Assembly: GCA_902776985.1 (NCBI GenBank) | Contig: CACYSD010000001.1 | Location: 106,758 to 170,757, forward strand | Length of the DNA: 64,000 nucleotides | DNA from: an uncultured Bacteroidales bacterium | Lineage (GTDB): Bacteria > Bacteroidota > Bacteroidia > Bacteroidales > Bacteroidaceae | Reading direction: 5' to 3' | Shown: positions 3,887 through 48,636 of the stretch, one piece after another | Numbering within the stretch: position 1 is the first letter of the stretch | Layout: each line of letters opens with the position of its first letter | Made by a program: the position numbers and the translations under genes | The notes under the pieces: generated by a model | What the model saw: only the letters and a program-made list of their open reading frames with translations | Database searches by the model: none | What the model was told of the DNA's origin: nothing

Positions 3887-5481
3887 GAAACTATTATCTG
3901 CTCCAGTAAAAGAGCTGTAAGAGAGAGCATTGACAATCGCAAGGAACGGGAAGTGCGATGTACGAAGAAGTTCCATACTGAAATAATAAAGACATATAGC
4001 AGCACTACGGCAACGGTGGATGGTCTATAGTCCACCGTTGCTATTTTTATTGAGGCAACTGCATCTACGATTGTGTTGTTCCATGAAACTATTGCAATGA
4101 TAGCAGATGTAAGCAATGTGGTAGTCAATCCACACAATGTAAACATCCACCAGAGCAACAGCATAATCAGCAATATAGATACTAAGGTCGAAATCACAAC
4201 GCTGCTTAACAGCCCTAACAGAGGAATGTAGCCAAAATAGTATGCTACTAGAGGAAATGTAGCAAGAGTACAGACGAGCGACATCCTTAATGGTGGCCAC
4301 AGGTATTCTTGGATTATCCTTGTAAGTATATTTCTGCGTCTTCCGGTTGAATCAATATGCAGCGTGTCCACATGAGTCAATGCTATAGCAACAATACTCG
4401 CAAACGACAGCTGGAAACCGATATTCATCAGCAGCAGCGGATTGAAGAATAGCATCAGCACTGCAGCGATGGCACAGGAATTGAGAAGACTTTGCTCTGC
4501 ATCTATTACTAAGGCCAGTTGCACTAAGGAAAGCATTATTGTTGCCCGAAGCAGTGACGGAGGCATACCTGCTATCATACAGAAGAGCCATGCAACGGGA
4601 ATTAAGGTAAAGGCAACAACTCGTCTCCATCTGCGCGTCATGAAGTTGTTCACAAGATAATTGAACATCACAAACAACATGGCGAGATGCATTCCCGACA
4701 AAGCCAGCACATGAGCCACTCCTGCATGTGCATAGGCTTGACGCAGTTTCTGATTAAGATTGGCTCTTTGTCCCGTAGTCATCGCCTCTACCACACTGCC
4801 AACGTCGTCTGTAATACCTGCATCGGCATACTTCAAATGTATCTGACTGCGTATATCGGCAAATTGCTTCGTCCAGTCACTTTTCCCATGATTTTCCCCT
4901 CTGCTATCCCAACTGCCAGGAAGCACATAGCAGGTGGCGCAAAATCCTTCGCAAAAAAGATAATTGCGATAATCATCAAGAATATGGTTATCGGTAGAGT
5001 ATGCGTCATTACGGATAAAAGTCGGATTAACCTTATATGCTTGAAGGGAAATGCTGTCACCACTATGCAATGTCTCTGGCGAATGACTTTCGTCCAAGGC
5101 AATATAAGCTAAAACACGGCTGTCATTTGTCCTGACCTCAACTGCATAGGTACGTGCCTTTTTCTTTGGTTCGGATTCCACAACCCCACATATCCACGCC
5201 CCTTTATCCGGAACGCTTTCAGTAATTGACAGACATCTCTGCAACATAAGTAGTGCTCCGAAGAGAGCGATACTGACATTACTCAGGACACCAAACAGAT
5301 GTATATATCTGAACTTCGGGCATAACGTATTGACATATAGTGCAGCACATGAGCATAAAATAAATGGTATAGCAAGCCACAACAGGTTTACTATACCATA
5401 ATCTATGCTTATATATCCCATAGCCATTCCCACTATCAGAGGAATGGCGAAGCGAACTACAGGATAATTCTGCCAGGACAT
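3883..5481 (-). CDS. comEC: ComEC/Rec2 family competence membrane protein
   Basis: Polytopic membrane protein. The LALSGMHLAMLF motif matches the ComEC competence domain (HLLAISGLHL-like). 532 aa. Confidence 0.75.
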   Translation of the reverse strand: MSWQNYPVVRFAIPLIVGMAMGYISIDYGIVNLLWLAIPFILCSCAALYVNTLCPKFRYIHLFGVLSNVSIALFGALLMLQRCLSITESVPDKGAWICGVVESEPKKKARTYAVEVRTNDSRVLAYIALDESHSPETLHSGDSISLQAYKVNPTFIRNDAYSTDNHILDDYRNYLFCEGFCATCYVLPGSWDSRGENHGKSDWTKQFADIRSQIHLKYADAGITDDVGSVVEAMTTGQRANLNQKLRQAYAHAGVAHVLALSGMHLAMLFVMFNYLVNNFMTRRWRRVVAFTLIPVAWLFCMIAGMPPSLLRATIMLSLVQLALVIDAEQSLLNSCAIAAVLMLFFNPLLLMNIGFQLSFASIVAIALTHVDTLHIDSTGRRRNILTRIIQEYLWPPLRMSLVCTLATFPLVAYYFGYIPLLGLLSSVVISTLVSILLIMLLLWWMFTLCGLTTTLLTSAIIAIVSWNNTIVDAVASIKIATVDYRPSTVAVVLLYVFIISVWNFFVHRTSRSLRLSMLSLTALLLEQIIVS

Positions 5482-11849: not shown

Positions 11850-11950
11850 TTGTGGGAAAAAAGTTTCAGCGAAGTGAAACAAAAGTTTCACCGCAGTGAA
11901 AATAAAGTTTCAGCGAAGAGAAAAAAAAGTTTCACTTCGCTGAAACTTTT
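11850..11950. repeat. Array A: four 22-bp-spaced hairpin units GTTTCA-N6-TGAAAC (iteron-like), flanked by an A/T run
   Basis: Units start at 11863, 11885, 11907 and 11929 (exact 22-bp period). Units 1 and 4 are reverse complements of each other. The conserved 5' flank ttgtgggaaaaaagtttca is shared with the second copy at 38913. Confidence 0.6.
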
Positions 11951-38912: not shown

Positions 38913-39035
38913 GTTGTGGGAAAAAAGTTTCACTGTGCTGAAACTTTATTTTCACTGTGCTGAAACAAAAGTTTCTCTGCGGTGAAACTTTTGTTTCACT
39001 CCCACTGAAACTTTTGTTCCAGTGCGAAGAAACCA
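38913..39035. repeat. Array B: five 22-bp-spaced hairpin units GTTTCA-N6-TGAAAC (iteron-like)
   Basis: Units start at about 38927, 38949, 38971, 38994 and 39016. Same 5' flank ttgtgggaaaaaagtttca as array A. Lies ~160 bp upstream of rhaB. Confidence 0.6.
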
Positions 39036-39191
39036 AAAAACGTCTGTTGTATAACGATTAACAAGGAAATAATTGAAGATTATCCAAGATAATTATTCAG
39101 CTTTGAGCACAAAAAAAACGGGAATAGCATAGCTATTGTTAAAAAATAATGTAAATTTGCAGGATACAAACAATAGAAATCAAACTAACTA

Positions 39192-40616
39192 ATGACATCC
39201 AAGTATTTTTTCTGTGTTGACCTCGGTGCTACAAGCGGACGAACGATTCTCGGCAGCATCGTGAACGACAAGTTACAACAACGCGAACTGACTCGTTTCC
39301 CAAATAATATCATACAGACCGGAGGACATTTCTTCTGGGATATCTATGCTCTCTATAACGAGATTATAAAGGGACTGAAGTTGGTTGCCAGCGAAGGCAT
39401 CGAGATTACCTCAATCGGTATCGATACCTGGGGCTGCGACTTTGTGATGATTGGTAAGGACGGCGGCATCCTCCGCAATCCCTACTGCTACCGCGATCCT
39501 CACACCGACGGTGCAATGGAGGAATACTTCAAACTGATTCCAAAGGAGAAAGTGTATGAGAAGACCGGCATTCAGTTCATGCAGTTCAACTCGCTTTTCC
39601 AACTCGCCACGCTGCGCCGTAACCACGACTCGGCTCTGGAGGCAGCAGAGAAGATTCTCTTTATTCCCGATGCTCTGACATACATGCTTACTGGCGAGGC
39701 TGTTTGCGAATACACCGTGCTCAGCACCAGTCAGATGCTGGATCCCCGCACCAAGAGGATTGACAAGGAACTTATCAATGCCATAGGTCTGAAGGAAGAG
39801 CAGTTTGGCAGATATGTGCAACCAGGCGAGGTGGTAGGTGTACTTAGCGAAGAGGTGCAGAAACAGACAGGTCTCGGTGCGGTGCCCGTAGTGGCTGTTG
39901 CCGGACACGACACAGGTAGTGCTGTGGCTGCTGTTCCTGCAGAGGACGAGAGATTTGCCTACCTCAGTTGCGGCACTTGGTCGCTGTTGGGAATCGAAAG
40001 CAAGGATGCTATCATCAACAAGAAGAGTTTTGAGTATAACTTCACTAACGAAGGTGGAATAGAGGGAACAACCCGTTTCCTGAAGAATATCTGCGGAATG
40101 TGGCTGTTGGAAAGGGCAAGGAAGGAGACCCTCCTCCAAGCTTGGCCATCGGACATTAATCAGATTAATCAAGATGCGATGGAGGCGAAACCGTTCCAGT
40201 CGATTATCAATCCAGATGACCCGCGGTTTGCTAATCCACCGTCAATGATTGAGGCTATCCAGAGTTATTGCCGCGAGACAGGTCAGCATGTGCCGGAGAA
40301 CTACAAGGAGATTGCACGCTGTATCTTCGAGAGTCTCGCACAGAGATACAAGGAAGTGCTGGACTACCTGAAAGAACTGGCACCCTTCCCCATCGAGAAA
40401 CTGCATGTCATCGGTGGAGGTACCTACAACCAGTATCTGATGCAGATGACTGCGAACAGCATCGGGCTGCCAGTAGTTACTGGTCCTGTAGAAGGCACCG
40501 CCATCGGTAATATGATGATTCAGGCAAAAGCCGCCGGTCTTGTCAGCGACATCTTCGCCATGCGCCACATCATCGCCAACAGCATCGAACTGAAGACTTA
40601 CCTGCCGGAAAGCTGA
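39192..40616 (+). CDS. rhaB: Rhamnulokinase (FGGY carbohydrate kinase family)
   Basis: N-terminal CVDLGATSGRTILG; FGGY N- and C-domains; 474 aa. Context with rhamnulose-1-P aldolase and a sugar isomerase. Confidence 0.8.
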   Translation: MTSKYFFCVDLGATSGRTILGSIVNDKLQQRELTRFPNNIIQTGGHFFWDIYALYNEIIKGLKLVASEGIEITSIGIDTWGCDFVMIGKDGGILRNPYCYRDPHTDGAMEEYFKLIPKEKVYEKTGIQFMQFNSLFQLATLRRNHDSALEAAEKILFIPDALTYMLTGEAVCEYTVLSTSQMLDPRTKRIDKELINAIGLKEEQFGRYVQPGEVVGVLSEEVQKQTGLGAVPVVAVAGHDTGSAVAAVPAEDERFAYLSCGTWSLLGIESKDAIINKKSFEYNFTNEGGIEGTTRFLKNICGMWLLERARKETLLQAWPSDINQINQDAMEAKPFQSIINPDDPRFANPPSMIEAIQSYCRETGQHVPENYKEIARCIFESLAQRYKEVLDYLKELAPFPIEKLHVIGGGTYNQYLMQMTANSIGLPVVTGPVEGTAIGNMMIQAKAAGLVSDIFAMRHIIANSIELKTYLPES

Positions 40617-40819
40617 GAAGGACTAAGAAATCCTAGGAAATCCTAAGAAATCCTAAGAAATCCTAGGAAATCCTAGGCGGTTCTAGGCTATACTAGGCAA
40701 TCCTAGGAAAGCCTAGGAAAGCCTAGGAAAGCCTAGGAGAACCTAGGAGAACCTAGGAGAACCTAGGCACTTCTAGGCAGACCTAGGCACTCCTATAAGA
40801 GCCTAGAAAAACCTAAAAC
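40617..40819 (+). repeat. Phased 10-bp tandem repeat array 1 (NNCCTAGGNN, about 20 units) immediately after the rhaB stop codon
   Basis: tcctaggaaa tcctaagaaa ... acctaggaga ... all in register with a 10-nt period. The CCTAGG core is palindromic; A/purine tracts are phased at 10 bp. Confidence 0.7.
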
Positions 40820-40866
40820 AATAATAATAATCAACTCATTATTAACTAATAAAAAAAACCAATAAT

Positions 40867-41532
40867 ATGGAATACGAAACCAAAGGGAAAGTCTTGAAAA
40901 AGGCTGTAGTTTGGAAGGATCTCTATATTTATAAAAAGAGCGATACCATCTATCAGCTGACGGTAGAATTCTGTCATCGATATCTCCCTCAATATGGCGA
41001 TCGTACAGTTGATCAGATGGTGCAGGCTGCCCGCAGCTGCAAACAAAACATCGTTGAAGGCAGCGAGGACGGTCAGACAAGCTCTGAAATGGAGATAAAG
41101 CTACTTAACGTAGCACGAGGAAGTTTGCAGGAATTGTGCTCAGACTATAATGACTACATTAACACTCGCCACATATCCCTTTGGTCTCGTGACAACGAGC
41201 GACAGATACAACTTAGGAATTATTGCAAAGCACACAATGACTATAGCGATTACGCTCCGTTGGTTGAGAAAATGAATGACGAAGAATATGCGAATTTGTT
41301 AATCACTCTCTGTCACCAAACTGACAAGATGATGTGCACTTATATTGAGCAATTAGAAAAGAAATTTGTAACTGAGGGAGGCATTAAAGAGCGTATGCGC
41401 GCTGCTCGAACAGGATACCGGAAAGCTCAAGACTCCCACATGGCAGATTTAGAAACAGAAAACAGACAACTCAAAGCCGAAATTCAAGCTTTAAGAGAGA
41501 GAATAAAAGAAATAGAGGCTAAGCTGCCCTAA
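40867..41532 (+). CDS. Four-helix-bundle protein (23S rRNA intervening-sequence protein / Avd-like family) with C-terminal coiled-coil extension
   Basis: VWKDLYIYKKSDTIYQLTVEFCHRY...QMVQAARSCKQNIVEGSED...LNVARGSLQELCSDY matches the four-helix-bundle (TIGR02436-like) pattern. The C-terminus QLKAEIQALRERIKEIEAKL is a coiled coil. Flanked on both sides by CCTAGG arrays. Confidence 0.6.
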   Translation: MEYETKGKVLKKAVVWKDLYIYKKSDTIYQLTVEFCHRYLPQYGDRTVDQMVQAARSCKQNIVEGSEDGQTSSEMEIKLLNVARGSLQELCSDYNDYINTRHISLWSRDNERQIQLRNYCKAHNDYSDYAPLVEKMNDEEYANLLITLCHQTDKMMCTYIEQLEKKFVTEGGIKERMRAARTGYRKAQDSHMADLETENRQLKAEIQALRERIKEIEAKLP

Positions 41533-41540
41533 GGAGAAAT

Positions 41541-41752
41541 AGGAAAAGCTAGGAAATCCTAGGCTATCCTAGGCAGGCCTAGGCAGACCTAGGCAGACCT
41601 AGGAAATCCTAGGCGGTCCTAGGCAATCCTAGAAAAGCCTAGGAAAGCCTAGGAAAGCCTAGGAGAACCTAGAAGAACCTAGAAAAACCTAAGAAAAGCC
41701 TAGAAAAGCCTAGAAAAGCCTAGAAAAATCCAGAAAACCCCAAGAACTAAAA
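41541..41752 (+). repeat. Phased 10-bp tandem repeat array 2 (NNCCTAGGNN, about 20 units; one 11-bp unit, with decay to CCTAGA/CCAGA at the 3' end)
   Basis: ggaaatccta ggctatccta ggcaggccta ggcagaccta ... aaaagcctag aaaagcctag. Ends 12 bp before the isomerase start. Confidence 0.7.
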
Positions 41753-41764
41753 AAAAATACAACA

Positions 41765-43195
41765 ATGAGTAAACCATTAGTAGAAACCAAAGCGAGAGTG
41801 GGTGTGTTCAGCATTGCTTTGCAAGCTTACCTACCACAGTTTCCTCAACTCGTTCCCGAGTTCGAGGCTCAGTATGCGACATTTAAGAAGACGCTGCCAG
41901 AAACAATAGAAATAATTGACGGAGGAATGGTCACGACCAAGGAACAGTCTATGGCTGCCGGCGATAAGTTCCGCTCAGCCGACGTAGACCTTGTTATCCT
42001 TCAGATGCTGACTTACTGCACATCATATAATATGTTGCCAGCAGTTCGCGACTTGGATGTACCTGTAGTCATCGTGAACGTTCAGAAGAAACTGGCTCCA
42101 GAATACGACAAGACAGATATCCCTACCTGGCTCGGTGAACTCTATGCCTGCGGAGCTATAGGTGAGATGGTTGCCGACCTGAACCGTGCAGGCAAACGTT
42201 CAGCAGTAATTACAGGCGTAGTTGAAGGTGGTGATCCTGAAGTTCAAGCAGAAATTGAGGATTGGTGCCGTGCTGCACAGGTTCGCCGCCGTTTCCGCGA
42301 CACCAACATAGCTCAGATTGGACGTCCTTACCCAGGCATGATGGACCTCTATATCGATGAGACAAACCTCTATCACCGTATGTTTGTATATACCAAGCAA
42401 TTTGACTGGGAACAGATGTGGGCTATCGCAGATAATATCACCGATGAAGCTGCTATCAAGGCTAAGGCAGAAGATATCCTCGCCACATTTGACATTGAAG
42501 GCGGAGGAACCATTGAGAAAGTTTGGGATATGGCAAAGTACGTTGTAGCTTTCGAGCAATGGGTAAAGGATGAGAAGTTGGGAATGATTGCCTCACACTA
42601 TGCAGGTTTTGCCCAAGGCGTTGCCGGCAAGCTCGATTCAATGCTTATTCCCGCGTTCTCCATGCTGATCAAGCAACACACCGCTTGCGCAGTGGAAGGC
42701 GACATGAAGGTAGCTATGGCAATGTCGATTCTGAAAACCATTTCCGGCACAGGCACATTGGCTGAGATGTACAGCATAGACTTTCCGAAGGATATCTGCA
42801 TCATCGGTCATAGCGGTTCTGGCGACTTCGACATCTCTCAGGCAAAGAAACCAACGATGAAGATTGTGCCTGTATTCCACGGAAAGACCGGTGGTGGTTA
42901 CCTAACCCAGTTCTATCCTCCAACAGGTCCTGTGACTTATCTCGCTATCACTCAGGACAAGAACGGAGTGTTCAAGTTTGTTGCAGCAGAGGGAGTCAAC
43001 GAAGAAGGCCCTATCTTCACCTTCGGTGATACCAACATGCGCACCAAGTTCTCGCTTCCTTGTCGCGAATTTGTGAACAAATGGAGCGAAGCCGGTCCTA
43101 CACACCACATGGCTGCTGCCGTAGGTCACCACATCGACACCATACTGAAAGTAGCAAAGATCCTGAATATTGAGTGTGACGTCGTTTGTAGATAA
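41765..43195 (+). CDS. L-arabinose isomerase / L-fucose isomerase-family sugar isomerase (probable L-rhamnose-type isomerase of this operon)
   Basis: 476 aa. VDLVILQMLTYCTSYNMLPAVRDLDVPVVIVNVQ...ACGAIGEM resembles the AraA/FucI N-terminal and central domains. Operon context with rhaB and rhaD. Confidence 0.6.
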   Translation: MSKPLVETKARVGVFSIALQAYLPQFPQLVPEFEAQYATFKKTLPETIEIIDGGMVTTKEQSMAAGDKFRSADVDLVILQMLTYCTSYNMLPAVRDLDVPVVIVNVQKKLAPEYDKTDIPTWLGELYACGAIGEMVADLNRAGKRSAVITGVVEGGDPEVQAEIEDWCRAAQVRRRFRDTNIAQIGRPYPGMMDLYIDETNLYHRMFVYTKQFDWEQMWAIADNITDEAAIKAKAEDILATFDIEGGGTIEKVWDMAKYVVAFEQWVKDEKLGMIASHYAGFAQGVAGKLDSMLIPAFSMLIKQHTACAVEGDMKVAMAMSILKTISGTGTLAEMYSIDFPKDICIIGHSGSGDFDISQAKKPTMKIVPVFHGKTGGGYLTQFYPPTGPVTYLAITQDKNGVFKFVAAEGVNEEGPIFTFGDTNMRTKFSLPCREFVNKWSEAGPTHHMAAAVGHHIDTILKVAKILNIECDVVCR

Positions 43196-43275
43196 AAGAC
43201 CCACCTGAAGACCCACCCCGACCCTCAAAGGGAAGACCCACCCCCTTACCCCTCCCTTGTAAGGAGGGGAGTAGT
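43196..43275 (-). repeat. GC-rich G4-motif hairpin element, copy 4 (extended, with three gaagaccca sub-repeats; G-rich on minus strand)
   Basis: Reverse complement contains CTACTCCCCTCCTTACAAGGGAGGGGTAAGGGGGTGGGTCTTC. Confidence 0.55.
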
Positions 43276-43301: not shown

Positions 43302-43688
43302 TTGCTAATGAACAGAGTTGCTACATATAAAACTGCATCACCCGACAGGTATGACATTCTGCGTGCCTATGCTCGTAAAAACAGAAAAAATGCAACATTA
43401 GCTGAACAGGTTTTGTGGAAACATCTTAGGGGTGGAGAACTAGGCGTAGAATTCCTACGTCAACACATCGTCGGCGATTACATTGTGGATTTTGCATCAC
43501 GGCATGACGGTCTTATTATCGAGATCGATGGTGGCTACCATGCGGAACGCCAACAAGAAGAAGATGATGCTATTCGACAAAAAAATTTGGAACAAATGGG
43601 TTTTCACTTTCTTCGTTTTTCAAATGAAGAAGTTATGTATAATACCGAAGAGGTTTTAAAACAAATAGAAGATTATTTATATGAATAA
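43302..43688 (+). CDS. DUF559 endonuclease-domain protein (Vsr/restriction-endonuclease-like fold)
   Basis: ATLAEQVLWKHLRG...VEFLRQHIVGDYIVDFASRHDGLIIEIDGGYHAERQQEEDDAIRQKNLEQMGFHFLRF matches the DUF559 pattern (D..E.DG..H motif). 128 aa. Inserted between operon genes. Confidence 0.7.
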   Translation: MLMNRVATYKTASPDRYDILRAYARKNRKNATLAEQVLWKHLRGGELGVEFLRQHIVGDYIVDFASRHDGLIIEIDGGYHAERQQEEDDAIRQKNLEQMGFHFLRFSNEEVMYNTEEVLKQIEDYLYE

Positions 43689-45063
43689 GCAAACAAATTC
43701 TAATAATCAATCTACTCCCCGCCCTCACAGGGAGGGGCAAGGGGGAGGGTCTTCTTCTTTGAAGAGTACCCTTGCGGTCTCTCTGAATAATTACCTTGAT
43801 GCGGGAGCAATCGTAGCAGGTTCAAGCGGAATTACCTTGTGGCAGAATTATCTGGGGCTGTCGGAGATGCATCTGGGTTGGCTCAATGCACTAAGTGCTA
43901 ATGCGCTGGGTGCAGCTATCGGAGCAATCATCGGTGGCTTCCTCGCAGATAAGTTCGGACGTAAGTTCATCTTCACATACAATCTGTTGGTGTATATGCT
44001 TGGTGTGCTCATCATCATGCTGTCCATTAGCTATCCCATGCTCCTTTGCGGATTCCTCGTCACAGGTATTTCAGTAGGAGTGGGAGTTCCTGCATCGTGG
44101 ACATATATCTCTGAAAGCAGTGAGGTTCACAACCGCGGCCGCAACATCTGCATCTCACAGATGTCGTGGGGCATCGGACCTATGCTCATCCTCTTCTTCG
44201 GTATGCTCTTTGCACCAGGCGGCTACTGCTACGGTCCTGTAGAATCGCTGGCTCATGCCATCATCGGTGCCGATGCTTCCCAGGCTGCGGTTGAGGTATT
44301 CTCATCGAGAGTAGTGTTCTTCACCCTCTTCGTTGTTGCCTTCATTGCCTGGAACCTCCAACGTCAGTTGCAGGAAAGCGCTGAGTTCGAAGCCAACAAA
44401 CAGAAAGGCAATAGCGGTATGGTTGAAAACATCAAGATGCTGTTCACCAACCGCATTGCAGTCAAGGCTGTGGTATTCCTTGCAACAATCTATTTGACTT
44501 GGAACCTCGTTGCCTCAGTTATGGGATTCTTCATGCCTCATGTATATGAGACTGCAGGCGGGCTCAGCAACGAAACCGCAAATATGCTTAGTTGCATAAG
44601 CTGGGTATTCGTTGTAGTTACCACCCTCATCATCTCGTTCTTAGTTGACAAGGTTGCACACCGTGTGTTCTACGTCTTCGGTCTGGCAGCTGCACTGACA
44701 GCATGGATTCTCGTCATTGGCGGAAGTATTACCAGCATTGCCGGCATTTGGGTGTTCACCATCCTGTGGGGTATCAACAACGGCAGCAGCGTACAGATAT
44801 TCTATGCACTTTGGGGCAGTGAGCTTTTCCCTGCGAAATTCCGTGCCGGTGCACAGGGACTGATGTTTTTCATCGTCCGTGGTCTCTCAGCGCTGTGGGG
44901 ACTGATCTTCACGCTTATCTACGGAGAGAACGGCGAAGGCTTCACCATCGCAGCCTACTGCATGATTGGTCTCCTCGTTATCTCTCTCGTCGTCGGTTTC
45001 ATCGGTGCCCCCAACACCCGCGGCAAATCGCTGGAACAGATTACAAAGGAAAGATATGGGTAG
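43681..45063 (+). CDS. MFS-family sugar transporter (probable rhamnose/deoxy-sugar permease)
   Basis: 12 predicted transmembrane helices and the MFS motif GGFLADKFGRK. The annotated first ~25 codons (..STPRPHREGQGGGSSS) are the translation of the hairpin repeat; the true start may be downstream. Confidence 0.7.
   Translation: MNKQTNSNNQSTPRPHREGQGGGSSSLKSTLAVSLNNYLDAGAIVAGSSGITLWQNYLGLSEMHLGWLNALSANALGAAIGAIIGGFLADKFGRKFIFTYNLLVYMLGVLIIMLSISYPMLLCGFLVTGISVGVGVPASWTYISESSEVHNRGRNICISQMSWGIGPMLILFFGMLFAPGGYCYGPVESLAHAIIGADASQAAVEVFSSRVVFFTLFVVAFIAWNLQRQLQESAEFEANKQKGNSGMVENIKMLFTNRIAVKAVVFLATIYLTWNLVASVMGFFMPHVYETAGGLSNETANMLSCISWVFVVVTTLIISFLVDKVAHRVFYVFGLAAALTAWILVIGGSITSIAGIWVFTILWGINNGSSVQIFYALWGSELFPAKFRAGAQGLMFFIVRGLSALWGLIFTLIYGENGEGFTIAAYCMIGLLVISLVVGFIGAPNTRGKSLEQITKERYG
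43712..43754 (+). repeat. GC-rich G4-motif hairpin element, copy 5
   Basis: CTACTCCCCGCCCTCACAGGGAGGGGCAAGGGGGAGGGTCTTC. Confidence 0.55.
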
Positions 45064-45091
45064 AAGACCCTCCCGTCAGGGAGGGAGTAAG
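45063..45091. repeat. GC-rich hairpin element, truncated copy 6
   Basis: gaagaccctcccgtcagggagggagtaag has the same ends (GAAGACCC...GGGAGTAG) but lacks the central G-tracts. Confidence 0.45.
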
Positions 45092-45094
45092 TGA

Positions 45095-45232
45095 AGTGAT
45101 AGGAAAACCTAGAAAAGCCTAGGAGAGCCTAGGAAAGCCTAGAAAAGCCTAGGAAAACCTAGGAGAACCTAGGAGAGCCTAGGAAAACCTAGGAGAACCT
45201 AGGCAGACCTAGGCACTCCTAGAAGAACTTAA
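45095..45232 (+). repeat. Phased 10-bp tandem repeat array 3 (NNCCTAGGNN, about 13 units), upstream of rhaD
   Basis: aaaacctaga aaagcctagg agagcctagg aaagcctaga ... agacctaggc actcctagaa. Confidence 0.7.
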
Positions 45233-45260
45233 AAACTCAAAAACTAAAAAACTAAATAAA

Positions 45261-46082
45261 ATGAAAAGTATTCTTGAAAACAGACCTGGATTGCAGGCAG
45301 AAATTGATAAAGTGGCGGAAGTAGCCGGTTATCTCTGGCAGAAGGGATGGGCTGAGCGCAACGGTGGTAATATCACCGTGAATATCACTGAGTATGCGGA
45401 CGACGAAATCCGCAATATGCCTGCTATTAGTGAAGTCTTCCAGATTGGCACAACACTGCCCTATCTCAAAGGCTGTTATTTCTACTGCAAAGGCACAGGC
45501 AAACGTATGCGCGACCTCGCACGCTGGCCTATGCAGAACGGTAGTATCATCCGCATTCTCGACGACTGCAAAAGCTACGTCATCATTGCAGATGAGCCTG
45601 TGATGCCAACATCGGAACTGCCTTCACACCTGTCCATGCATGACTACCTCATAGGTTCGGGAAGCTGCTATAAGGCTTCGCTCCACACCCACCCTATCGA
45701 ACTGATTGCAATGAGCCATAACAGAGGAATGTTGAGAAAGGATGTTATGACTCATCTTCTCTGGTCTATGATTCCAGAAACTTTGGCGTTTGCACCATTA
45801 GGATTGGGAATCGTGCAGTACGAACTGCCAGGCAGCGTGAAATTGGCAAAAGCTACACTGGAAAAAATCAAGGACTACGATGTAGTGCTATGGGAGAAGC
45901 ACGGAGTATGTGCTGTAGGAACAGACATCATGGATGCCTTCGACCAGGTTGATGTGCTCAACAAGTCTGCTAATATCTATATGTGTGCAAAGAACATGGG
46001 CTTCACTCCTGACGGCATGACCGACGAAGCTATGCGCGAAGTACAGCAAGTCTTCAAACTTCCGAAGAAGAGACCATGCTAA
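45261..46082 (+). CDS. rhaD: Rhamnulose-1-phosphate aldolase (class II aldolase/adducin family)
   Basis: WAERNGGNITVNI and HTHP metal-binding motif region. 273 aa. Confidence 0.8.
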   Translation: MKSILENRPGLQAEIDKVAEVAGYLWQKGWAERNGGNITVNITEYADDEIRNMPAISEVFQIGTTLPYLKGCYFYCKGTGKRMRDLARWPMQNGSIIRILDDCKSYVIIADEPVMPTSELPSHLSMHDYLIGSGSCYKASLHTHPIELIAMSHNRGMLRKDVMTHLLWSMIPETLAFAPLGLGIVQYELPGSVKLAKATLEKIKDYDVVLWEKHGVCAVGTDIMDAFDQVDVLNKSANIYMCAKNMGFTPDGMTDEAMREVQQVFKLPKKRPC

Positions 46083-48547: not shown

Positions 48548-48565
48548 AAGCGAATTAATTCTGGA

Positions 48566-48622
48566 TGTCGTTATGACGATATGACGTAATAACTATATAA
48601 CGTTATATCGATATGACGCTAA
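48566..48622. promoter_or_regulatory. Conserved ~50-bp intergenic module with palindrome TATAACGTTATA, copy 2 (upstream of the GH2 gene)
   Basis: cgttatgacgatatgacgtaataactatataacgttatatcgatatgacgct. Confidence 0.35.
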
Positions 48623-48636
48623 AACGTCCTTAAGGT

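Follow-up and report, generated by a model that had tools for sequence, protein, structure and literature searches.

A CCTAGG tandem array upstream of rhaD belongs to a dispersed extragenic repeat family linked to a four-helix-bundle gene

What does a run of 10-bp direct repeats do in the spacer immediately upstream of rhaD, and where did it come from? We examined this question in a 64,000-nucleotide stretch of DNA from an uncultured Bacteroidales bacterium (contig CACYSD010000001.1 of assembly GCA_902776985.1; hereafter, the window), in which the repeats, here called array 3, lie between rhaD and the gene for a major facilitator superfamily (MFS) sugar transporter. Two further arrays of the same kind, arrays 1 and 2, bracket a gene for a 221-residue protein (the four-helix-bundle suffix gene) and form with it a cassette 3.5 kb upstream of array 3 in the same operon; array 3 itself is a solo array with no such gene beside it. 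Array 3 belongs to a lineage-specific dispersed family of 10-bp tandem units, each with a nearly invariant palindromic CCTAGG core and a free 4-nt spacer. This family and its link to the four-helix-bundle suffix gene appear to be previously undescribed, and the sequence comparisons point to a dispersed extragenic repeat with an associated gene; we found no description in the literature of CCTAGG arrays or of their link to such genes.

The site is compact. Read from position 45061, it comprises the MFS stop codon TAG, the letters AAGAC, the hairpin CCCTCCC-GTCA-GGGAGGG, AGTAAGTGAAGT, a leading degenerate unit GATAGGAAAA, 12 units whose CCTAG cores begin at 45108, 45118 and so on to 45218, and an A-rich tail that runs to the rhaD ATG at 45261. 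With the leading unit the array comes to ~13 units, and Tandem Repeats Finder recovers it at 45100–45228 with period 10 (11.4–12.9 copies, scores 137–157), in agreement with the unit count of the initial annotation. That annotation also correctly recognized the A-rich leader, which is itself an 8-bp repeat, and the downstream gene as rhaD (NF002963, 297.7 bits against a cutoff of 170). It had further described the GC-rich hairpin ahead of the array as truncated: the hairpin is indeed present, but its stem-loop at 45068–45085 has a complete 7-bp stem, and all that it lacks are the AGACCCACC-type units that precede a fuller copy of the element elsewhere in the operon. Across the window, a pattern of three phased cores gave 68 matches against 0 in 100 shuffles, and all 30 CCTAGG sites (8.6 expected overall) lie inside the three arrays. 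The sequence of array 3 is identical in 6 independent metagenome assemblies and is therefore not an assembly artefact.

To define the family more broadly, we scanned one genome per species for four CCTAGG motifs at 10-bp spacing and obtained at least 119 stretches, nearly all of them in Prevotellaceae or in Bacteroidales metagenome-assembled genomes (MAGs) from rumen and gut, and a single genome often contains several. One core of 6 bp and one period thus recur at more than 100 loci in many genera. Even in a sample that was not picked by DNA pattern, the outer positions of the core are conserved (C1 in 85–90% of units, G6 in 88–95%), whereas the four spacer positions carry merely 0.1–0.8 bits. 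The distance from core to core is exactly 10 bp in 445 of 492 cases (~90%) and mostly 20 or 30 bp in the rest. The A-rich strand occurs in both orientations relative to the flanking genes, with the sense strand favoured 27:15 in solo arrays and 52:23 when cassette arrays are added, some loci being redundant between samples.

A census of genomic context for 113 arrays of at least five units placed 59 between co-directional genes, 14 between convergent and 3 between divergent genes (convergent versus divergent, p = 0.013), with 16 beside the family of the 221-residue protein, 1 inside a called open reading frame (ORF) and 20 left unclassified because one flank was unknown or the array lay more than 400 bp from a called ORF. 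Arrays begin close behind the gene upstream, at a median of ~13 bp between its stop codon and the first CTAG, and in 11 cases the stop codon is contained in that CTAG. Because 10 mod 3 = 1, an array puts a stop codon, almost always TAG, in each of the six frames every ten codons, which explains why arrays are almost never coding. CTAG is ~20-fold depleted in the window outside the arrays (that is, outside 40617–40830, 41530–41764 and 45090–45260), with 11 occurrences where base composition predicts 244 and a Markov model 99, so the arrays are made of the tetranucleotide that these genomes most avoid. Related loci L223–L227 likewise contain about one CTAG per 13 kb. Two other tetranucleotides, GATC and GGCC, occur in the window at ~0.3 of expectation.

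Searches in other sequence collections gave little. Among 2.9 million viral contigs there were 2 array matches and no homologue of the four-helix-bundle suffix gene, on which a phage origin was rejected, and the single match among plasmids was a second replicon of Prevotella nigrescens. A search of the whole window against Rfam at gathering thresholds matched no family and no rRNA.

The second component of the system is the gene between arrays 1 and 2. Its product matches TIGR04258 (76.6 bits), TIGR02436 (34.7, cutoff 24) and PF05635 (34.2, cutoff 33.8), and an AlphaFold model (predicted local distance difference test score 83) consists of a bundle followed by a long C-terminal helix at residues 173–219. 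The closest folds in the PDB are the pentameric bundles 2GSC and 2RLD, both uncharacterised; searches of the PDB by sequence and by fold returned these bundles only, and no nucleic-acid-bound structure of the fold. The protein has an invariant GGIKERMxAARTGYR segment followed by heptad leucines. A basic leucine zipper (bZIP) identity for this tail was rejected, as the Pfam matches were not significant (E = 0.04–0.4), and comparison with the PADLOC anti-phage families and with PHROGs gave no meaningful match.

Arrays and gene are found together whether loci are picked by DNA or by protein. Among the loci selected by the DNA pattern, 13 of the 119 listed have a homologue, 51–75% identical, that abuts the array. 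Conversely, we collected 80 metagenome loci by protein similarity, of which 63 had at least 200 bp on both sides of the gene; an array lies within 300 bp of the gene in 47 of these 63, on both sides in 18, only downstream in 23 and only upstream in 6. The remaining ~250 kb of these loci contain ~8 arrays, which corresponds to a ~50-fold enrichment beside the gene. The association is old, because the isolate P. nigrescens encodes a 55%-identical homologue with a –7 box of its own, followed closely downstream by a short CTAG array. The gene itself is found in varied company: its neighbours fall into 65 clusters, and about a quarter of the 80 loci are type I restriction–modification operons with hsdS or GmrSD (GmrSD_N) upstream and hsdR downstream (among them L135, L136, L161, L162, L164, L167, L177 and L182). 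Most contigs that carry the gene are merely 1–2 kb long, as would fit assemblies that break at the flanking arrays. Within the gene family, the stop codon is TAG in 61 of 79 cases, mostly within the first array unit, a trivial consequence of ORFs that run into arrays. A sensor of TAG readthrough, responding to TAG-recoding phages, was considered and rejected here: the window's gene stops at TAA, inside the first, degenerate unit of array 2, and nine codons beyond the MFS TAG comes an in-frame TAA.

One pair of loci captures the gene in filled and empty states. L169 and L100 have flanking proteins that are 98% identical; L169 has a 3-unit array, the gene and a 9-unit array, and L100 has one array of 4–5 units whose left end is that of the upstream array of L169 and whose right end is that of the downstream array. 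This correspondence of outer ends shows the gene sitting inside an array and implies that the two states interconvert by recombination between units. A second candidate rearrangement, L196 against L181, was rejected, because what had been deleted was a neighbouring AlkZ-like gene, in an unrelated event. Arrays 1 and 2 of the window have in common a ~90-bp block with the same order of spacers, AAAT-CGGT-(CTAT)-CAAT-AAAG (three times)-AGAA (twice), which is a ready substrate for such recombination.

The spacers also record relatedness among arrays. Spacer repertoires of arrays at the same locus have a mean cosine of 0.38, against 0.12 for different loci (p = 1e-11), and the repertoire of array 3 has cosines of 0.72 and 0.68 to arrays 1 and 2; against arrays elsewhere its mean is 0.21 and its 95th percentile 0.605. 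All three arrays of the window contain the spacers CAGA and CACT, which account for 0.1% and 0.5% of units elsewhere. In arrays 1 and 2, whole-unit differences separate strains whose isomerases are identical, array 1 being 4 units shorter in other strains; the unit number of array 3 is constant in seven strains. Strain L215 shows point differences in array 3, one AGACCCACC-type unit added at the hairpin and one extra 8-bp unit in the leader, a repeat whose copy number varies among strains. At their 3' ends (40806–40866, 41724–41764 and 45226–45256), the arrays each decay into degenerate cores of the kinds CCTAGA, CCTAAG or CTTAAAAA and then pass into an A-rich leader.

Related operons place array 3 in time. 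In L227, whose isomerase is 87% identical, the same four genes are separated by spacers of 20–31 bp, and in L223 and L224 the short operon spacers hold a different 8-bp repeat. In L207 and L209, whose RhaD is 86–89% identical, the GC hairpin follows directly on the MFS stop codon with no array behind it, which suggests that array 3 is a later addition beside an older hairpin. Judged by these relatives, array 3 is a derived state, added in a lineage that also gained the cassette. In that lineage the first of the three operon spacers holds the cassette and its pair of arrays, the second a hairpin element and a DUF559 gene, and the third the hairpin with array 3. The proposal that such spacers are preferred landing or expansion sites is supported by the contrast between these filled spacers and the 20–31 bp of L227, and in the sequences compared the spacers act as docks for small passenger genes. 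Strains that do not differ in their isomerase have, in the slot that separates the isomerase gene from the MFS gene, either DUF559 (in the window) or one of three unrelated ORFs without a Pfam match (213 residues in L120 and L218, 166 in L217, 216 in L219 and L221). The spacers of L209 carry other passenger ORFs, a PDDEXK_3 gene between kinase and RhaA, and DUF559.

The initial annotation had placed array 3 where the rhaD promoter or leader would be, and the promoter part of this proposal was not upheld. The Bacteroidetes-type –7 box TAnnTTTG is missing from the whole 198-bp spacer (45064–45260) and from every array spacer; the nearest matches on the + strand are at 42379, within a coding region, and at 39152, before the operon. 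The latter, the sole box in front of the operon, is a candidate promoter for the whole transcript from kinase to rhaD. None of the three arrays has a sense-strand match to an intrinsic terminator (a GC-rich hairpin with a U run); several terminator-like matches occur on the antisense strand only, because there the CCUAGG hairpins precede U-rich spacers. On these motif searches array 3 is not a promoter, and since its spacer holds neither a –7 box nor a sense-strand terminator, it is best read as an intercistronic, presumably co-transcribed spacer. Phased A-tract bent DNA has runs of 4 or more A in step with the helical repeat; positions 7–9 of the units, within the 4-nt spacers, are 54–75% A, but many of the runs comprise 3 A.

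As RNA, the region has a marked potential to fold. The palindromic core makes the direct repeats self-complementary, and the sense RNA of array 3 has a predicted free energy of –77.4 kcal/mol (z = –10.05). The predicted structure consists of the small GC hairpin, a rod of 6–7-bp CCUAGG helices separated by 4×4 loops and an unpaired leader, with the last ~38 nt before the rhaD AUG unpaired. Folding is as good for the antisense strand. When the cassette is folded as a whole, its minimum-free-energy structure has array 1 paired in part with array 2, with the ORF enclosed between them.

We regard as probable, though far from certain, an account in which array 3 is a solo remnant of the cassette arrays or an offshoot of them, tolerated by its host and acting at most as a stem like those of repetitive extragenic palindromic (REP) sequences and as a hot spot of recombination and slippage. 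The arrays would be the characteristic flanks of the four-helix-bundle suffix gene, which would sit inside an array; recombination between units on its two sides would remove or insert the gene and leave one hybrid array behind. On this view array 3 would either be a scar left where a copy of the gene was lost or have been seeded from arrays 1 and 2, with which it has rare spacers in common. Most likely co-transcribed with the operon, it would fold as a rod of 6-bp CCUAGG helices with 4×4 purine loops, having the MFS stop codon on one side and on the other an A-rich leader that, being unstructured, would leave the start codon of rhaD accessible. To the host it would probably act like a REP-type intercistronic stem, either hindering 3' exonucleases or providing a processing point. 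Expression of rhaD would hardly be affected, and the array would be prone to changes in unit number and to recombination; it would be tolerated because in this orientation it neither blocks transcription nor occludes the rhaD start.

Several points weigh against this account. The sequences themselves show that array 3 is a member of the family, that arrays and gene are linked, that one filled/empty polymorphism exists, that the array is derived, that its spacer lacks a promoter motif and that it has the potential to fold; co-transcription, the direction of gain or loss and any effect of array 3 on the mRNA are steps that we infer, and the RNA rod is a prediction. The 221-residue protein has no recognisable recombinase, nuclease or transposase domain. 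In the 63 protein-picked loci with adequate flanks, 16 have the gene without an array and the 23 already mentioned have a downstream array only, so not every copy sits inside an array. The filled/empty pair is the only one found, and it is compatible with insertion as well as with deletion. Near-identical copies of the gene almost always have the same neighbours and hence give no indication of transposition in recent bursts; the cassette may instead be long established and not actively mobile. The identity of array 3 across six assemblies could reflect either constraint or a clonal population.

A more far-reaching and decidedly tentative idea is that the arrays and the four-helix-bundle suffix protein form a two-part module, in which a non-enzymatic bundle with a zipper-like tail would recognise the phased palindromes as DNA or as an RNA rod. 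Such recognition would bring about or regulate recombination between arrays, by which the cassette would move and solo arrays would be seeded, and/or the processing of host operons at solo arrays, array 3 among them. Closely related, and compatible with our preferred account of array 3 as a relic or offshoot, is the possible but doubtful reading of the array as a protein-binding DNA element, in which a dimeric factor would read CCTAGG once per helical turn and coat or bend the array. The neighbouring four-helix-bundle suffix protein would be the candidate factor, with its basic invariant segment, heptad leucines and modelled C-terminal helix, and solo arrays would be targets in trans through which it modulates operon transcription, recombination or local DNA structure. 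The strict period, the conserved palindrome between free spacers and the occurrence of both orientations relative to transcription all suit such a factor, as do the depletion of CTAG elsewhere, which makes arrays unique addresses, the persistence of the gene–array linkage down to 55% protein identity and the precedent of MetJ and TrpR, which bind tandem short palindromic operators containing CTAG. It is harder to reconcile with the non-significant bZIP matches, with the failure to recover a nucleic-acid-bound structure of the fold and with the avoidance of divergent, promoter-bearing spacers, and the orientation bias of 52:23 suggests a strand-specific constraint at the level of the transcript. 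The same bias speaks for a host-selected RNA element, a reading that we consider unlikely, in which the rod would serve as a processing site for RNase III or RNase E, or as a stabiliser, and so make the expression or decay of rhaD independent of the cistrons upstream. The analogy is with 23S rRNA intervening sequences that encode a protein of this family and are flanked by stems which RNase III cleaves. The very stable sense fold built from self-complementary direct repeats, the location of arrays after stop codons in co-directional and convergent spacers, the leader that stays unpaired before the AUG and the partial pairing of arrays 1 and 2 around the cassette ORF would all fit such an element. 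Yet one third of arrays have the opposite orientation, unit number varies freely among strains, close relatives lack any array at this site and Rfam yields no match; moreover, any unit can pair with any other, which makes a covariation test impossible.

Two further readings have little in their favour. That array 3 belongs to the rhaD promoter, in line with the first proposal, or is a curved upstream element governing the initiation of rhaD transcription, is very improbable: although the array lies 34 bp upstream of the rhaD ATG and its runs of 3–4 A are phased at 10 bp, an arrangement that is expected to bend DNA, the spacer has no TAnnTTTG box, divergent, promoter-containing spacers hold just 3 of the 76 classified arrays, the same arrays occur at convergent 3' gene ends, and orthologous operons are compact and leave no room for internal promoters. 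Slightly less probable still is an ordinary slippage minisatellite of independent origin, unrelated to the other arrays or to the gene. Runs of identical adjacent units, gain and loss of whole units among strains and the presence of 8-bp and 9-bp tandem repeats in operon spacers of related genomes would fit slippage, but this view is already contradicted by the spread of one core and period, built from the most avoided tetranucleotide, over more than 100 loci in many genera, by the conservation of the core while spacers drift, by the ~50-fold enrichment beside one gene family and by the rare spacers common to array 3 and arrays 1 and 2.

In lifestyle, the closest analogue of the family is the REP sequences and bacterial interspersed mosaic elements (BIMEs) of Enterobacteria and Pseudomonas, together with their REPtrons. 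Both are short extragenic palindromic repeats that come after stop codons, where the spacer is co-transcribed or separates convergent genes, and that seldom occupy divergent spacers, both have solo copies that far outnumber gene-flanking copies, and both form stable RNA stems, predicted ones for the arrays, which in the case of REP can protect upstream mRNA; array 3 alongside the cassette resembles solo REPs beside a REPtron, or solo long terminal repeats. Membership fails on unit architecture and on the associated gene, since REP/BIME units are single imperfect palindromes of ~35 bp (~20–40 bp), whereas the arrays have 10-bp head-to-tail units, each with a perfect 6-bp palindrome, repeated 5–20 times, and since REPtrons encode a REP-associated tyrosine transposase (RAYT; Y1, IS200/IS605-type), whereas the four-helix-bundle protein has no recognised catalytic domain. 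The cassette, though not array 3, has the protein superfamily (PF05635/TIGR02436) in common with 23S rRNA intervening sequences, and likewise a gene placed within a host transcript, here a presumed one, and bracketed by self-complementary sequence. It differs in that the host is an mRNA operon of sugar-catabolism genes, the window containing no rRNA, in that tandem arrays replace a single inverted repeat, and in that the protein has an extra C-terminal suffix domain, TIGR04258. Integron cassettes likewise combine a small, usually promoter-less ORF with a structured imperfect palindrome inserted downstream of host promoters, but here no integrase is nearby, a tandem array stands in place of a single attC and one gain or loss event was seen.

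Other tandem repeats resemble the arrays in fewer respects. The variable-number tandem repeats (VNTRs) of the mycobacterial interspersed repetitive unit (MIRU) type also lie in operon spacers and vary in copy number among strains, as arrays 1 and 2 do, but their units of ~40–100 bp have no palindromic core, unlike the 10-bp unit here, and we know of no gene family associated with them. The met-box operators of MetJ and the trp operators of TrpR are head-to-tail short palindromes that contain CTAG and bind one dimer each, cooperatively. With these the likeness is resemblance only, because they have an 8-bp period and 2–5 units and stand at promoters, whereas the window's arrays have a 10-bp period and up to ~20 units and avoid promoter regions. 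Clustered regularly interspaced short palindromic repeat (CRISPR) arrays have repeats of 23–50 bp, unique spacers of similar length and usually cas genes; the arrays here have a 6-bp core, a 4-bp spacer and no cas genes among their neighbours, and are not CRISPRs. The intergenic direct-repeat arrays of the heptamer TAACTGA in Beggiatoaceae, Cyanobacteria and some Bacteroidetes (PMC4679880) are short tandem repeats with stop codons that lie just upstream of start codons at many loci of certain lineages, and their function is unknown, with a post-transcriptional role suspected (PMC4679880). They differ in their 7-bp non-palindromic unit, which forms no hairpin rod, from the window's unit CCTAGGNNNN with its 10-bp period, and no linked gene has been identified for them. 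Genes of the 23S_rRNA_IVP family have been found embedded in cas operons (PMC3936711), which fits a passenger lifestyle.

The features of the operon are collected in Table 1. Tandem Repeats Finder places array 1 at 40623–40806 and array 2 at 41540–41746. The isomerase is Fucose_iso_C/arabinose-isomerase-like and is not RhaA, which relatives with a similar RhaD have in its place; its ~85% identity to proteins of Lachnospiraceae and Clostridia MAGs suggests acquisition by horizontal transfer. A palindromic repeat of 22 bp, AGTTTCACTGTGCTGAAACTTT, present in 3.4 copies (38926–39000) some 150 bp upstream of the –7 box in front of the operon, is a candidate operator of the rhamnose regulator; a related 22-bp repeat occurs in 3.5 copies at 11857–11934.

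Table 1. Features of the array-bearing operon in the window, in order of position
Feature	Position	Strand	Remarks
TAAATTTG, Bacteroidetes-type –7 box	39152–39159	+	consensus match only; 33 bp before kinase ATG
FGGY sugar kinase	39192–40616	+	first operon gene
Array 1	40623–40810	+	~18 units, between kinase stop and four-helix-bundle gene
Four-helix-bundle suffix gene	40867–41532	+	221 aa; TIGR02436 and TIGR04258; PF05635 23S_rRNA_IVP
Array 2	41530–41746	+	~20 units, between four-helix-bundle gene and isomerase
Sugar isomerase, Fucose_iso_C type	41765–43195	+	
Fuller GC-hairpin copy	43196–43275	+	three AGACCCACC-type units, then CCCCTCC-CTTGTAA-GGAGGGG
DUF559 small ORF (Vsr-like endonuclease fold)	43302–43688	+	slot varying among strains
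MFS sugar transporter	43681–45063	+	stop precedes hairpin and array 3
GC-hairpin element	45064–45091	+	directly after MFS stop TAG (45061–45063)
Array 3	45097–45227	+	13 10-bp units: 9 CCTAGG, 3 CCTAGA, 1 degenerate; purine-rich 4-nt spacers
A-rich leader	45226–45260	+	~4 units of 8 bp (CTNAAAAA), predicted unpaired, reaches rhaD ATG
rhaD, rhamnulose-1-phosphate aldolase	45261–46082	+	NF002963

Other repeats share these spacers. GC hairpins of the form CCCTCCC-N4-7-GGGAGGG constitute a dispersed family separate from the arrays, often after AGACCCACC-type units. In the window they occur at 25455–25473 in addition to the two operon copies, and in relatives at 5062 and 5515 of L207, at 2537, 2989, 3680 and 4454 of L209 and in clusters in L065, L085, L187 and L191. 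The hairpin is kept across species after the MFS and isomerase stop codons, and in L207 and L209 hairpins in inverted orientation, with loops GTGA and TCAC, flank the DUF559 gene. Arrays of the 8-bp units CATAACGA or ACGTTATA fill further spacers (window, 27023–27063 and 48565–48626; L224, 5904–6004 and 7458–7541; L223, 7360–7407), and a 9-bp TTAGAGAAG array lies between kinase and RhaA in L207 (3710–3788).

Proteins of the 23S-rRNA-IVS/four-helix-bundle type are very common in Bacteroidota, Cyanobacteria and other phyla, where they are encoded in rRNA, restriction–modification, CRISPR and catabolic operons, and Avd of diversity-generating retroelements is a relative; to our knowledge, the stand-alone members have no known function or ligand. 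Here, a conserved motif array is physically coupled to one four-helix-bundle subfamily, with solo copies in operons of dominant rumen and gut Prevotella, and this coupling makes binding, processing and recombination concretely testable. If the two-part module is real, it would provide the first ligand and the first testable function for the 23S-rRNA-IVS/TIGR02436 family, and would help to explain why genomes that purge CTAG 20-fold keep it in arrays. The arrays probably also break metagenome assemblies and, as they vary in unit number among strains, might be used as strain markers, and they show where passenger genes come and go in the operons of important fibre-degrading bacteria.

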